From the IMG/VR virus record IMGVR_UViG_2526164665_000024: DNA of 15,682 bases. One strand, 5' to 3'. Positions 6,971 to 12,045 of this stretch are shown in pieces (position 1 is the stretch's first letter; every line of letters begins with the position of its first letter). Under the pieces are notes generated by a model. It had not been told where the DNA came from. It saw nothing but the letters and a program-made list of their open reading frames with translations, and did not search any database. Made by a program: the position numbers and the translations under genes. Origin of the DNA: a virus. Lineage: Duplodnaviria > Heunggongvirae > Uroviricota > Caudoviricetes.

Positions 6971-7067
6971 GTTTCCGATTCCTTATTTTCAGCTTTCAGG
7001 CGCAGGCAGTCCCCTGACGCGAGCGCCATAATTAAAACGATGTGATATTTAAAGATTTAATGTGGTG

Positions 7068-7597
7068 TTATTTATTCAGTCCGGCGTCCTGTTCAAAAGG
7101 CTCGACATAAAAACTTTCAGCGCCTTTATTCACCTTTATACCGGCAATGCCTTTCACCGCATCCGGCTCCGCCAGGACGGCTTCCTTGTTCACTTCCTCT
7201 TTCGTGCGGATGAATCGCTCAAGCCCCATAAGGCGCAGCATTTCAATCACGCCTTCCACATCACGGCTGACGCTGCATGATGGATTTCCCAGCCGCCATG
7301 ACACCGTGCCGGTGGTCAGATTGGCAGTTTTTGTTTTGCCGCCGTTCGTCAGCTCATCTCGGTTGGTTTTGCACCAGTCCTGAATCCCCTTAAAAAGCAC
7401 TTTGATTTCTTTTTAAGGTTTTCAATTTGCGGCGTATAACGGGCGGTGATTTCTGCCACTTCATCATTCATCGCCGTTTCCAGCCGCAGCGCCTCTCGCT
7501 GAATATCGCCCAGGGTGCGGATATCGCGGCTGACCTCTTCGCGGGTCTGCGGTGCAGCCTCGGCTGCGGCCTTTAATTTTGTAACGCGTTTTGCCAT
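7068..7597 (-). CDS. gam: Gam, host-nuclease inhibitor (Ku-like DNA end-binding protein); frame broken by apparent 1-nt deletion in T5 run at 7410-7414
   Basis: N-terminal ORF 7349..7597 and C-terminal ORF 7068..7400 together align with Mu Gam as I recall it (ASRLETEMNDAIAEIT ... GWCEANRDELTNGGKVKTANL ... LERLGLQRFIRTKQEINKEA ... PFEQEAG). Restoring one A in CTTAAAAAG gives continuous ...IENLKKEIKVLFKGIQDWCKTNRDELTNGG. Confidence 0.85.
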
Positions 7598-7608
7598 TTT
7601 GTTTTTCC

Positions 7609-7902
7609 TTATTGCAGTGTGCCTGATGCTTTATGCACGCGGTGGCGTTTAATGATGGCATCCGCCCCAAAAGCCTGTACAGATGCCTGAAATTCCGCTG
7701 AGAGAAACTGAATAATTTCAGGACTGTGATACTGGAGAATACTTACATAAACGTCACAGAGTGACGTCGGCCTGTTATTCGTATCACGTTCTGTTTTTAC
7801 ATCCACACCAATCTTTTCATGCACTTCAACACAGTCATTGCCTGCCGGTTTTTCGTCATGCGAAACATGCTTAAATTCAAAAATAACGCGTACTTTGCTC
7901 AT
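7609..7902 (-). CDS. hypothetical small protein, tandem paralog 2 (MSKVRVIFEFKH...)
   Basis: ATG 7902-7900 with AGGGGT RBS; N-terminus and internal pattern parallel the adjacent gene 7907..8179. Confidence 0.5.
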   Translation of the reverse strand: MSKVRVIFEFKHVSHDEKPAGNDCVEVHEKIGVDVKTERDTNNRPTSLCDVYVSILQYHSPEIIQFLSAEFQASVQAFGADAIIKRHRVHKASGTLQ

Positions 7903-7906
7903 GGAA

Positions 7907-8179
7907 TTACCCCTGCTGATTAAATTCATTACCTTTAATAACCCCGGAACGCATGCTCATATCTTTCATGAGCGCACTGGCTTTCATTGCCACAAGTTCA
8001 GCAAAGTCTCTGCTTTCCGCGAGCATAACCACCCCAAAAATCATGGCAGGTCCATCACCTTTCTGCTTTATCCCGGTTGAACGTATGTCCAGACTTATCC
8101 CCATGCGCACTGTTCCATCCGCGTTTTTATGGATAACGTGCTCCTTGTATTCGAAAATAATGCGTACGACTTTACTCAT
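7907..8179 (-). CDS. hypothetical small protein, tandem paralog 1 (MSKVVRIIFEYKEH...)
   Basis: ATG 8179-8177 overlaps upstream stop (ATGA); GAGGA RBS; paralogous to 7609..7902. Confidence 0.5.
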   Translation of the reverse strand: MSKVVRIIFEYKEHVIHKNADGTVRMGISLDIRSTGIKQKGDGPAMIFGVVMLAESRDFAELVAMKASALMKDMSMRSGVIKGNEFNQQG

Positions 8180-8457
8180 CCTCTGGTCCTCGTTCTGTTT
8201 GGATAACTGACCCGGCGTCTGACCTCACGGCAGAACCGAATCATGGCATTAAAGGCTTCTTCCTCCGTCACCGCTTCCGGTATCCCCGGAACCAGTAACT
8301 GCTCCTGTTCATCACGTCCATGACGCGCCATAACCTCAATCACATGCCGTACCGTGGCAGGCTTTCCGGCAACTATCGGCAATGCACCTTCCGGCAGGAC
8401 GTAACCAAACTCAATAAGACCACTCGACCACGCCCATGCAATGAGAATTTTTTTCAC
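8176..8457 (-). CDS. hypothetical early-region protein (93 aa)
   Basis: GTG start 8457-8455 preceded by GGGAGGTG RBS; no recognised motif. Confidence 0.5.
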   Translation of the reverse strand: MKKILIAWAWSSGLIEFGYVLPEGALPIVAGKPATVRHVIEVMARHGRDEQEQLLVPGIPEAVTEEEAFNAMIRFCREVRRRVSYPNRTRTRG

Positions 8458-8458
8458 C

Positions 8459-8713
8459 TCACACCTCCCAGTAAACCGTGCAGCCGCTGATGCGGGTGGC
8501 CTTCACACGGCGGCGCAGGCCGTTGGTCTGTATGGTGATTTCAATTTCACCGGTTCCCTGCACGTTGCCTACCGGCGGCGTGGTTTTCAGTGCAAAACGT
8601 TGCGGATAGCGCTTACTGCGTTCCAGTACCGCACCGGCAAGTTCGGTCAGACGGCGCGCGCTGTTCAGGGAGTCGAATAAATTCATTTTGTTACCGCAGG
8701 ATTGCATATTCAT
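8459..8713 (-). CDS. hypothetical early-region protein (~84 aa)
   Basis: ATG 8713 (MNMQSCGNK...) with GAGGTG RBS; the ORF-track start at 8725 lacks an RBS. Confidence 0.45.
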   Translation of the reverse strand: MNMQSCGNKMNLFDSLNSARRLTELAGAVLERSKRYPQRFALKTTPPVGNVQGTGEIEITIQTNGLRRRVKATRISGCTVYWEV

Positions 8714-8725
8714 ATAACACCTCAT

Positions 8726-8947
8726 TTAGCTGACTTGTTTCGCACCAACAGAACGGCATATTCCGCTGTAAACTTCTGTCGCACCTTCGCGATCAAGTCC
8801 GGCAGATATCACCATTCGTGTGCGGTCATTAAATTCAAAAAGTAAATCGCCACATTCTTTATTTTCGGCCAGTGAAATCACCTTCACGTTATCGAAATTA
8901 ACCAGGTAAAAGCGTCCGTAAATATCAGGAATATAAAATACCGCCAT
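8726..8947 (-). CDS. small protein in the Kil position immediately after B (putative host cell-division inhibitor, by position only)
   Basis: ~74 aa, starts within a few nt of the B stop (GTG 8953 overlapping, or ATG 8947 with AGGTG RBS); Mu kil has the same size and position. Sequence identity not verifiable from memory. Confidence 0.35.
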   Translation of the reverse strand: MAVFYIPDIYGRFYLVNFDNVKVISLAENKECGDLLFEFNDRTRMVISAGLDREGATEVYSGICRSVGAKQVS

Positions 8948-8949
8948 AA

Positions 8950-9882
8950 TCACACCTGTGAGAGTAATTCAGGGTTGGTATAAACCTCTTTAAAGGCCGC
9001 ATTAATATGTTTTTCTGTCAGCGCCGCACCTTCACCGCTGGCGGTGAGCCACGCCTGGTTAAGCGTATGTGTCAGAACGCGTAACGCTCCCGGCTTTTCA
9101 GCGATAGCCTGCATGACGGCCAGCTCGGCCTCACCACTGATCCCCCACGCCCTGGCAATGGCCAGCACATCCGCCTTTTTGGCCTTGCGAAGTTGTTTTG
9201 TACGGGCAAGACGGCTGAACAGGCGCGATAAATCATCAAAGGCGCGGCGTCCACCTTTAAACAATCCGCGCGGGTTACCAATAAGCACCATCCCGATCCC
9301 CGTGGCGTCCTGAATTGCCCGGAGTTGCTCCAGACCGTCAATACCAAGATGATCCGCCTCATCCACAATCACCAGTCCACGCGTTCCCATCAGGCGACGG
9401 CGGATGGCGCGGGATAATGCCCCTTTGTTCGCGCGGGTGTAATCAATCCCCAGCGCATCGGCCAGCTCCAGCAGACACTCCGTGACGCTGGAGTGCGCGG
9501 GTGACAGGGTGATCATCCAGGTGTTTGGTTGCTCCTGGCAGTAATTACGGGCAGTGGCCGTTTTACCCACACCCGGTACGCCCACAATAACGTTAATACA
9601 GCCCATCAGACGAACCGCCTGAAACAGTGTGCGCAGCTCCTGGACTGTCTGCGTTTCCACAAACTGCGGCGGTTCCGGCAGTGCGCTTTGTTTATTCCAG
9701 TTCTCATACCAGGAACGCAGGGAAGCAGCCACAGCAGCGTTATCGCCTTTATATTTTCCCTTACGGAAAGCCGATAATGTGCCGTCGGAAATTCCCGCCT
9801 CTCTGGCGATGGCATACTGTGTCAGTACGCCGCCATCAATAAGTTCATCAATGGTCTTGATTACATCGTTAATATCAGTCAT
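8950..9882 (-). CDS. B: MuB-like AAA+ ATPase, transposition target-DNA activator
   Basis: 310 aa (Mu B is ~312); Walker A GVPGVGKT; N-terminal HTH-like region; directly downstream of transposase A; GAGAGG RBS before ATG 9882. Confidence 0.9.
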   Translation of the reverse strand: MTDINDVIKTIDELIDGGVLTQYAIAREAGISDGTLSAFRKGKYKGDNAAVAASLRSWYENWNKQSALPEPPQFVETQTVQELRTLFQAVRLMGCINVIVGVPGVGKTATARNYCQEQPNTWMITLSPAHSSVTECLLELADALGIDYTRANKGALSRAIRRRLMGTRGLVIVDEADHLGIDGLEQLRAIQDATGIGMVLIGNPRGLFKGGRRAFDDLSRLFSRLARTKQLRKAKKADVLAIARAWGISGEAELAVMQAIAEKPGALRVLTHTLNQAWLTASGEGAALTEKHINAAFKEVYTNPELLSQV

Positions 9883-9954: not shown

Positions 9955-10082
9955 CAGGCCAGCGGGTCATTTTCTTTTAATTTCGCTTCCAGCAACTGCA
10001 ATCCCCGCTGGAAATTACGCTCGTATTCTTCATCAGGTTCATCGTCAGCGACCGGTTGCTGAACGGTCACCGTATTACCCAC
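9954..10082 (-). CDS. small ORF in the A-B spacer (42 codons from GTG), or out-of-frame C-terminal extension of transposase A
   Basis: Frame of ORF 9954..10160 gives a protein-like acidic tail NTVTVQQPVADDEPDEEYERNFQRGLQLLEAKLKENDPLA; its upstream part overlapping A looks like out-of-frame junk. Frame relation to A is not a single-base deletion. Confidence 0.25.
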   Translation of the reverse strand: MGNTVTVQQPVADDEPDEEYERNFQRGLQLLEAKLKENDPLA

Positions 10083-12045
10083 TAGGGCGGTATATGTTTT
10101 CCAGCCAGGGCTCCTGCGGCTTGTGCTCCAGCACGTTGACAACCTCATCCTCGGCATCACGGATTTTTTCCTCTGCGCGTTTACGCATGCCTTTAAGGCG
10201 TTGCTGCTGTTTGTAGTATTCCGCGCTAACCGGGAAGGCTTCGCGTTTATTACCGTCCCATACCGCCTCGCAAATCACGCTGCCATCCAGGCGACGTACG
10301 GTAATTCGTTCGGCATCATGAATGTCATAGCTGATAAGCACCTTACGGCCATGCTCGTCACGCAGCTCGGGCGCGTAGTAAATATTATTCAGCCAGCGTA
10401 TTTCACAGCGTCTTACAGGGCGTTCCACCATCGGCCGGAACATATCCCGCAGCTCAACATCGGACAGCCATTCAATTTCCGTGTCCTCTTCCGCCAGGCG
10501 TTTTTTTCTGAACTCCGCCGGGCTGTAATGCTTGCCGTTCGGCTTCACCGGTAATTCATCGTGCGGCCGGTTGTTGTACCACTCAACACCATCACGAATG
10601 GCATCAATCAGTTCAGCCCAGGACGGTAAATCACGCATCGCTGACTGTTGCCGGGCGTTCAGCCGTTTGCCCTGTTGCAGGGCGGTAAATGCCGAGCGTA
10701 AATCGCGGTTGGTTTTGCGTAACGTCTCGCGATCTGCACCTTTCCCGAAATAGGTGCGGTATTTACGGGCTATGCGCATCGGTAATGTGCGGTTAAGCCG
10801 TTCGATAATGCCCCGTCCCTGCGGGTTACCGGCAATCCCGGTCGGGTGATTAATCCCCAGTCGCGGCAGTATCCCCACAACCTCCTTATCCAGGATGTCG
10901 GCGGTTTCCCCGGAGCCGTTATCCGAGTAATACAGAAACGGTTTGCCGTGATGGCGAATGCCGTGCTGTATGGCACCGGCTACGGCGAAAACATTTTCAG
11001 CCAGGTCAAGGCTCCAGCCCACCACAAAGCGCGTGCCACCGTCGATAACAAAGGTCACTTCCGGTGCAAATGGCCGACCGTGAACCGGGTGTGCGCATTT
11101 CAGCTTCATGCCGTGACCGTCACCAATCCAGACATAATTCACCGGCATTTTTGACCAGTCGCGGCGCGTGAATCCCTCAAGCTGGCGGTATTCACTGCCG
11201 GTCACCCGGCCTTTTTGTTTCACCACTTCCGGCAGTTTCTTCATTGCGCGGCGAATGGTGTCATAAGACGGCATGATATCGAGCATATAAGGCTCATCAG
11301 CGTGCCGGTGCTGCCATTCAGCGACAAAATCCTCGTAAGCCTCGGTCATTGGTCGGCCGTTTGACTGGCGATACTGCGCCAGAAATTCGGGCAGCCAGTT
11401 AATATCTTCGGCTTTTATTTCCTGGCGCTTACCCGGTGCCAGTAAAAGCAGGCGTTCAGCGGCGTTCTGCGCCTTGTTAAAGGCCGCAATCCAGCGTTTC
11501 AGCGTGATTTCACTTAACGCGCGGCTGTTTCCCTTTTTGGCGTTCGCCGTCTCAACCATTGCCACAATGCGCTCGTCCAGCTGCGAACGTGCCAGGTTGT
11601 CAACGATAAACCGGATAGCCTTCGCACAGCTGAAACCAGGTTGTTGCGCGACTTTCAGAACTTCGCTGACGATCGCGATTCGTGCATCAGCCACCTGGCG
11701 CTGGTTTTCAGTCAGGGCATTAAGGCGTTCGACCATCAGTTGTGGTGATCCGCGATATGCCTCCACCGCATCAACCACGGCAGGCGAGCGTCTGGCCTTT
11801 GTCACCACCGGAGCCGGTGATTCATCGACTTTTTGCGTCATCAGTTGCAGGGCGTAGCGTTCACGTAATGCCTGCTGCGTCACTTCAGGTAAACAGTCGA
11901 TGCTGTATTCAGTTGCTTTAGAGCCTGAGCGACGACGGGAACAACAGCTTTTCCCTTGTACGTAACGTTGTAATGCCTGGCGAATACCTTTTGTTGTAGC
12001 AGGCATTCCGGGCGCGCCAATCAGTTCTTTTGCAATGACATACAT
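10075..12045 (-). CDS. A: MuA-like DDE transposase
   Basis: 656 aa (Mu A is 663); N-terminal enhancer/end-binding domain resembling Mu A (GSKATEYSIDCLPE vs Mu GGKAIEYN..SLP); DDE-region motifs WIGDGHGM and YYSDNGSGE; gene order ner-A-B. Confidence 0.92.
   Translation of the reverse strand: MYVIAKELIGAPGMPATTKGIRQALQRYVQGKSCCSRRRSGSKATEYSIDCLPEVTQQALRERYALQLMTQKVDESPAPVVTKARRSPAVVDAVEAYRGSPQLMVERLNALTENQRQVADARIAIVSEVLKVAQQPGFSCAKAIRFIVDNLARSQLDERIVAMVETANAKKGNSRALSEITLKRWIAAFNKAQNAAERLLLLAPGKRQEIKAEDINWLPEFLAQYRQSNGRPMTEAYEDFVAEWQHRHADEPYMLDIMPSYDTIRRAMKKLPEVVKQKGRVTGSEYRQLEGFTRRDWSKMPVNYVWIGDGHGMKLKCAHPVHGRPFAPEVTFVIDGGTRFVVGWSLDLAENVFAVAGAIQHGIRHHGKPFLYYSDNGSGETADILDKEVVGILPRLGINHPTGIAGNPQGRGIIERLNRTLPMRIARKYRTYFGKGADRETLRKTNRDLRSAFTALQQGKRLNARQQSAMRDLPSWAELIDAIRDGVEWYNNRPHDELPVKPNGKHYSPAEFRKKRLAEEDTEIEWLSDVELRDMFRPMVERPVRRCEIRWLNNIYYAPELRDEHGRKVLISYDIHDAERITVRRLDGSVICEAVWDGNKREAFPVSAEYYKQQQRLKGMRKRAEEKIRDAEDEVVNVLEHKPQEPWLENIYRPSG

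Follow-up and report, generated by a model that had tools for sequence, protein, structure and literature searches.

A tandem pair of small paralogous genes between kil and gam of a Mu-like Escherichia coli prophage

Introduction

Two short genes lie side by side directly upstream of gam in the IMG/VR virus record IMGVR_UViG_2526164665_000024, whose stretch of 15,682 nucleotides (nt) is referred to here as the window. The window is a Mu-like Escherichia coli prophage, and prophages of its type occur in O157:H7 and in other producers of Shiga toxin. The upstream gene encodes a protein of 90 amino acids (aa), termed P90, and the downstream gene encodes a protein of 97 aa, termed P97. Both proteins open with an MSKV-type stretch, which raises the question of whether the two genes are diverged copies of one ancestor and what such a pair may do for the prophage. 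An earlier note, made from this DNA alone, had described them as a duplicated, fast-diverging pair of the kind seen in an arms race with host factors. The explanation that we consider probable on balance is that P90 and P97 arose from an ancient tandem duplication within a single small alpha/beta family, occupying an accessory slot between kil and gam in the early operon of enterobacterial Mu-like prophages, subject to cassette exchange, and having a host-directed role like that of the Mu protein Gnarl2.

Homology of P90 and P97

The two open reading frames (ORFs) adjoin each other on the minus strand (Table 1), and their products begin with MSKVVRIIFEYK (P90) and MSKVRVIFEFK (P97). Pairwise BLASTP detected similarity over residues 1 to 17 only (E value, 0.001), and a joint MAFFT alignment was colinear with approximately 20% identity overall. 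The initial family alignments, drawn from a large protein database, held only E. coli sequences; when these were compared in hhalign, the P90 and P97 families aligned over 45 columns with a probability of 83% (E value, 9e-6). An exhaustive HMMER scan with a joint profile recovered relatives of 93 to 98 aa, and a follow-up search added about 80 more, nearly all of them hypothetical proteins of Salmonella enterica, together with Serratia and E. coli variants.

The Salmonella and Serratia relatives are clear P97-type orthologues (hhalign E value against the P97 family, 4.7e-18) and also aligned with the P90 family across 76 columns (E value, 4.2e-6). By eye, their sequences are intermediate between the two proteins, with GISVRVRSQGL corresponding to GISLDIRSTGI of P90 and YALILKHNAPNIIRFL corresponding to YVSILQYHSPEIIQFL of P97. 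With the families enlarged in this way, the hhalign probability was 90% over 71 columns (E value, 1.7e-6). A hidden Markov model (HMM) of the P97 family built without P90 sequences placed P90 as the top nonself match among the 121 ORFs of the window (E value, 2.2e-4; 14.5 bits), the next-best ORF reaching 1.4 bits, and the reverse search with the P90-family HMM retrieved P97 with an E value of 0.024. jackhmmer searches started from any member of either family converged on both families and included none of about 2,700 decoy ORFs.

Both proteins already have a place in PHROGs. P90 matches phrog_4107 over its full length (E value, 2.1e-61; residues 1 to 90 against positions 1 to 90 of 90), as does the divergent P90-type protein P0063 (E value, 9.7e-30), and P97 gives a full-length match to phrog_2230 (E value, 1.7e-39; residues 3 to 97 against profile positions 1 to 88 of 89), a family also matched by the Salmonella, Serratia, and E. 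coli variants of P97. These two families, both of unknown function and with members annotated as hypothetical, are held separate in PHROGs; the profile comparisons join them into one superfamily.

Another origin of the resemblance has to be weighed at this point, namely, that the genes are unrelated save for about 36 nt at the 5' end, which either were transferred by recombination or gene conversion or are kept as a translation-initiation or RNA element. The segment is indeed distinctive. P90 and P97 are approximately 88% identical in DNA over their first 12 codons (36 nt) and near-random beyond, synonymous divergence (dS) across alleles is 0.09 for P90 and 0.07 for P97 within it compared with about 0.8 in the rest of P97, and allele boundaries are located there; the end of the BLASTP match at residue 17 fits the same picture. 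However, the profile similarity extends well beyond the segment. Alignments in which residues 1 to 12 and up to residues 1 to 25 had been deleted remained colinear with hhalign scores of 22 to 23, and even the score of about 22 obtained without residues 1 to 25 exceeded the maximum of 19.3 reached in 200 column shuffles (mean, 11.0; standard deviation, 2.5). Both the 76-column alignment of the Salmonella-type profile with P90 and the merging of the families by jackhmmer likewise argue against a chimera. In the Salmonella and Serratia orthologues, the V-x-V-I-F-x-F-E strand is kept with partly different codons, indicating that the motif is constrained at the protein level; the GTT ATT TTT codons for V-I-F are kept even in these orthologues. 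An Rfam scan of the window matched no family. A chimeric resemblance is thus very improbable.

Paralogy is the reading retained here: as judged from sequence profiles, P90 and P97 are confirmed as true, very old, and highly diverged paralogues. The parallel pattern over about 70 residues described in the earlier note held up, with profile alignments reaching 71 to 76 columns where BLASTP stops at 17 and with signal remaining once the N terminus is removed. Its description of a duplicated, highly diverged pair of adjacent genes with a shared start was likewise borne out by the reciprocal best HMM matches at about 20% identity. The low dS of the 5' segment could reflect either a recombination hotspot or a translation-initiation constraint, and it is plausible that the segment serves as a recombination site between alleles and between paralogues.

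Rearrangements between the P90 and P97 copies do occur, as one E. coli assembly encodes a 67-aa protein (P0036) in which P90 residues 1 to 49 are fused to P97 residues 80 to 97 at a shared Phe-Gly, a deletion between the paralogues. Frameshifted or truncated versions of both genes are also present in the database (P0040, P0041, P0050, P0053, P0061, and P0071).

Allelic exchange and selection

A gene-by-gene comparison of eleven loci showed that P90 and P97 are each discrete allelic cassettes in a nearly identical prophage backbone. Among these loci, B, kil, gam, and gp11 were 91 to 100% identical at the protein level. The P97 alleles form two classes that are about 58% identical to each other, and P90 alleles range from 54 to 100% identity. 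When the window was compared with strain 102651 (L057) over positions 7000 to 9000, from gam to the start of B, 30-nt bins with at least 2 mismatches occurred only inside P97, and the divergent block stopped just short of its 5' end. Variation in other strains was limited to P90 or to w75, a small neighboring gene. One P90 allele co-occurs with both P97 classes, indicating that the two genes reassort independently and need not co-evolve. Each gene recombines on its own into the constant backbone, with the first 36 nt or so acting as one cassette boundary. The pair is variable between conserved flanks and varies in presence and absence, as is typical of accessory genes. The w75 gene is also cassette-like, with alleles that are either 97 to 100% or about 74% identical and that reassort independently of P90 and P97.

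Selection was estimated by the pairwise Nei-Gojobori method (NG86) in about ten loci. The median ratio of nonsynonymous to synonymous divergence (dN/dS) was 0.31 for P90 and 0.35 for P97, compared with 0.04 for B, 0.06 for gam, and 0.09 for kil. Regional values ranged from 0.09 to 1.01; the N-terminal strand and the helices were the most constrained regions, and the C-terminal tails had the highest, near-neutral values (0.8 to 1.0), the tail codons of one locus (L053) being unreliable in this calculation. By pairwise NG86, no gene-wide dN/dS exceeded 1 and no region was clearly above 1. P90 and P97 are therefore kept intact under relaxed purifying selection.

These values bear on several expectations of the earlier note. 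Fast divergence stands insofar as P90 and P97 vary much more than the genes around them. The dS between P97 allele classes is, however, equally large (0.7 to 1.2, compared with about 0.15 in the flanks), which points to old allelic lineages moved by recombination rather than to a recent duplication whose copies diverged rapidly in place. The dN/dS comparison that the note had suggested gave no sign of diversifying selection across either gene. Neither of the two outcomes that it had named as speaking against its view was found: similarity extends past the first few residues, and copy number is not invariant, P90 being missing from the examined Salmonella and Serratia prophages and from E. coli CI5.

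The arms race suggested in the earlier note can be read as an anti-defense function, in which P90 and P97 would neutralize host nucleases or defense proteins and their variability and duplication would reflect that contest. The setting suits such inhibitors, as the genes lie in a variable early interval beside gam, whose product is a RecBCD and DNA-end antagonist, and beside w93, which is labeled 'host nuclease inhibitor'. They are also cassette-like, hypervariable, and of varying copy number, and phage accessory regions are enriched in counter-defense genes. In opposition to this, P90 and P97 gave no match in Pfam, NCBIfam, PADLOC, and PDB-sequence searches, PHROG annotation shows no similarity to a known family, and neither protein matches any curated anti-defense or defense profile or solved structure. 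The absence of dN/dS values clearly above 1, gene-wide or regional, counts against an arms race as well. Furthermore, the sole characterized candidate relative, Gnarl2 (see below), has the envelope barrier, and no defense system inside the cell, as its site of action. We consider an anti-defense function unlikely, although it is the most serious competitor to the host-directed, Gnarl2-like role favored here.

Distribution and copy number

In every non-E. coli context examined, a single P97-type gene is located just upstream of gam or of a gene encoding a DUF3164 protein. Two Salmonella loci (L048 and L049) have the order B, 74-aa gene, 137-aa gene, Kil, w93 homologue, P97 type, and DUF3164; in two others (L051 and L052), the order is similar, an 80-aa gene replaces the 74-aa gene, and the series ends with Gam. 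The order is Kil, P97 type, and Gam in Serratia (L050) and Kil, P97 type, and then DUF3164 or Gam in L079 and L080. E. coli CI5 (L046) carries P97 only and lacks both P90 and w93. P90 is absent from all of these loci (L046, L048 to L052, L079, and L080), and the P97-type gene is separated from gam by 8 to 11 nt. The tandem pair of a P90-type and a P97-type gene was found in the prophage type of the window and in L053, where the identity of the P90-type copy drops to only 54% and just a 3' remnant of w93 is left. P90 itself was found in E. coli prophages and in one further assembly.

Because single P97-type genes occur outside the pair-bearing prophages, the P97 type is the conserved occupant of the slot and P90 an extra, more derived copy. 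P90 keeps the upstream junction with w93, and P97 keeps the junction with gam. This arrangement fits a tandem duplication, and it would follow equally well from unequal recombination of two distinct alleles.

A tblastn search of 50,697 phage records found P90 and P97 only in two Stx-phage records with an inserted Mu-like element and not in Mu. In other species, 42 distant Mu-like loci that encode Gam were covered as well, and neither the P90 and P97 HMMs nor jackhmmer found a homologue among their ORFs.

Other genes of the interval vary as well. The w93 gene, absent from CI5 and a remnant in L053, is a module of this interval that is present or absent independently. Its Salmonella homologue (L048:3732-4004) immediately precedes the single P97-type gene and overlaps it by the same ATGA as in the window. 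Some Mu-like prophages of Salmonella have a 212-aa DUF3164 protein instead of Gam (L048:4303-4941 and L079:2803-3441), with the P97-type gene kept upstream. A gene of 136 to 137 aa located before kil in Salmonella (L048:3095-3508 and L051:3098-3508) resembles Mu gp8 by eye, including a W.R.WRD motif; its position suggests that accessory gene order in the B-gam interval may be shuffled between Mu-like phages.

The distribution also bears on whether the proteins could have a role internal to the phage, as small cofactors of transposition, replication, or Gam whose variability merely reflects weak constraint. The P97-type gene almost always adjoins gam on its upstream side, and a dN/dS of about 0.3 with near-neutral tails would fit weak constraint. 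On the other hand, the gene is kept where the DUF3164 protein replaces Gam, and it has no recognizable form in Mu or in the 42 distant loci. Moreover, while B, A, and gam stay constant, the alleles reassort freely, and co-variation with a phage partner is therefore not seen. As the gene persists when gam is replaced and its alleles reassort, a phage-internal cofactor role is highly unlikely.

Predicted structure and possible relation to Gnarl2

An AlphaFold model of P97, generated with an 87-sequence joint alignment, had a predicted local distance difference test score (pLDDT) of 84.4 and a predicted template modeling score (pTM) of 0.68. It consists of a long beta-hairpin (residues 4 to 21 and 24 to 39), a variable loop (41 to 47), two helices (48 to 58 and 60 to 77), and a disordered tail, and in this model P97 is shown as a small alpha/beta fold without enzyme-like features. 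Column entropy was lowest in strand 1 and helix 1 and highest in the loop, strand 2, and the tail. Foldseek searches of the model against PDB and BFVD returned nothing below an E value of 0.07.

A functional lead comes from phage Mu, which carries different genes, gp6 to gp9, between kil and gam. The 87-aa product of gp7, also named E6, Mup07, and Gnarl2 (Silas et al.; bioRxiv 10.1101/2023.04.06.535777; Nat Commun 2025, PMC12373910), came from a screen of phage accessory genes. Its expression causes an O-antigen band shift, renders wild E. coli 10^5- to 10^6-fold more sensitive to T5, and is also conditionally lethal (bioRxiv 10.1101/2023.04.06.535777; PMC12373910).

Three proteins of the gp7 family had phrog_2230 as their second-best family, in full-length, colinear matches with library-wide E values of 9e-3, 4.2e-4, and 3.8e-3, and gp7-family members were the sole subthreshold matches once the P90/P97 jackhmmer search had converged. 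A single gp7 sequence is similar to the family by eye, yet its hhalign score equals that of shuffles, and P90 and P97 have no match to phrog_10252, the gp7 family. Homology between the P90/P97 family and Gnarl2 is therefore suggestive but not established, although we lean toward accepting it.

The genomic setting offers points of likeness and of difference. Like Gnarl2, which is nonenzymatic, P90 and P97 are small (90 and 97 aa compared with 87 aa), and their genes lie between kil and gam in an early operon of the Mu type. Mu, however, has a single copy with gp8 and gp9 before gam, whereas here two copies lie directly upstream of gam. Similarly, the pair resembles phage accessory regions in forming hypervariable cassettes between conserved kil/w93 and gam, with varying presence and reassorting alleles, but it differs from them in having been defined in prophages rather than in cultured phages and in being under relaxed purifying selection that is not demonstrably diversifying.

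On this basis, P90 and P97 may be small, nonenzymatic binders of strain-variable host proteins that act early after induction or infection. A Gnarl2-like interference with O-antigen or cell-envelope biosynthesis could exclude related phages or prevent re-adsorption, and the variety of alleles together with a second paralogue would let the prophage deal with more host variants. Such an effect on O-antigen or envelope biosynthesis is our best single guess at the function, and a tentative one. A more far-reaching possibility, which we regard as doubtful, is that phrog_2230, phrog_4107, and gp7/Gnarl2 form one superfamily of small modulators of the host envelope (O-antigen pathway), carried between kil and gam by enterobacterial Mu-like phages, in which alleles and the tandem copy are matched to the extreme diversity of host O-antigen biosynthesis proteins.

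Several observations weigh against the view that P90 and P97 are ancient paralogues of one fold with a Gnarl2-like role. With a shallow, P97-only alignment, the AlphaFold prediction was poor (pLDDT, 50.5), and since the joint alignment includes P90 sequences, the better model does not test independently whether the fold is shared. When a 15-sequence gp7 family was used in hhalign, the E value was 0.02 for the P90 family and 0.32 for the P97 family, and the P97-family HMM misses gp7. The target of Gnarl2 is itself unknown (PMC12373910). No annotated homologue supplies a function for P90 or P97, all being listed as 'hypothetical protein', and a literature search by RefSeq protein accessions found no paper. 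Allele class has no obvious link to serotype, as O157:H7 strains carry both P97 classes. Finally, the dN/dS sample is small and affected by recombination, and dS between allele classes comes close to saturation.

Organization of the locus

The stretch from 7000 to 9000 is 98.7 to 99.9% identical to the best-matching chromosomes among those listed and is carried by 232 of 5,426 complete E. coli genomes (approximately 4%), many of which are O157:H7. Feature positions are given in Table 1. The longest P97 ORF extends to 7929, but RefSeq and all homologues begin at the MSKV codon at 7902. Noncoding or decaying ORFs were considered and ruled out, as P90 and P97 are intact in more than 220 genomes, have a dN/dS below 1, and have a confident predicted fold.

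Table 1. Positions of P90, P97, their shared segments, and neighboring genes in the window
Feature	Position	Strand	Remarks
P90	7907-8179	minus	ORF, 90 aa, upstream paralogue; RefSeq coding sequence WP_000049430.1 in a 100% identical locus
P97	7609-7902	minus	ORF and RefSeq start; 97 aa, downstream paralogue
First 36 nt of P90 (MSKVVRIIFEYK)	8144-8179	minus	Nucleotide-level conservation with the P97 5' end
First 33 nt of P97 (MSKVRVIFEFK)	7870-7902	minus	Allele-cassette boundary here
P90/P97 junction	7903-7918	minus	CAG CAG GGG, TAA, TTCC, then P97 ATG; read from sequence
gam (Mu Gam-like)	7068-7597	minus	PF07352 on both halves; downstream border of accessory interval; frameshifted in the window
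w93	8176-8457	minus	93 aa; phrog_1518, PHROGs label 'host nuclease inhibitor'; no Pfam
kil homologue	8459-8713	minus	phrog_2679 (E value, 7.8e-46); upstream border of accessory interval
w75	8726-8947	minus	73 to 75 aa; phrog_3375, function unknown; directly after B
B	8950-9882	minus	
Transposase A	10075-12045	minus	

The w93 gene is a neighbor in the early operon and not a paralogue of P90 and P97, and PF26843 (Kil_protein) is recorded on homologues of kil. A 1-base deletion at about position 7410, where a T6 run is reduced to T5, breaks the gam gene of the window into two ORFs (7349-7597 and 7068-7400). In NZ_CP034806, which is otherwise 99.9% identical, gam is intact (531 bp); the split could be due to either pseudogenization or a homopolymer sequencing error.

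The stop codon of w93 overlaps the P90 start in an ATGA, P90 and P97 are 4 nt apart, and 11 nt separate the P97 stop from the gam start. No promoter-like or terminator-like site was found on the coding (minus) strand between 6900 and 9000. Given this tight spacing and the lack of such sites, the pair apparently lies within a polycistronic early operon. P90 and P97 would then be made early from the transposase-B-kil-gam transcript and be translationally coupled to their neighbors. An AGGGG Shine-Dalgarno-like motif is located within the coding end of P90, 7 nt upstream of the P97 start, where it would be placed to serve translation of P97. As the motif falls within the codons of the nearly invariant C-terminal residues NQQG, conservation of the P90 C terminus may in part be a translational constraint for P97.

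Implications

P90 and P97 belong with the genes of phage accessory regions and do not constitute a new kind of system. What is added here to the two existing families is their union in one superfamily, their behavior as cassettes, the history of their copy number, and a weak bridge to Gnarl2. The locus illustrates two routes by which a Mu-like prophage varies a single early accessory function, namely, tandem duplication and cassette exchange within a backbone that is otherwise 98 to 100% identical, and a large allelic series exists in Salmonella as well. Should the link to Gnarl2 fail, P90 and P97 would be an ordinary uncharacterized accessory gene family. If the link is true, the alleles would represent a ready natural library in which to search for the host target of Gnarl-type proteins, and they would help to account for the ways in which prophages alter O-antigen and phage susceptibility in pathogenic E. 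coli and Salmonella. If, in addition, the superfamily of envelope modulators is real, a prophage could retune the surface of its host and its susceptibility to phages by swapping a 300-bp cassette.

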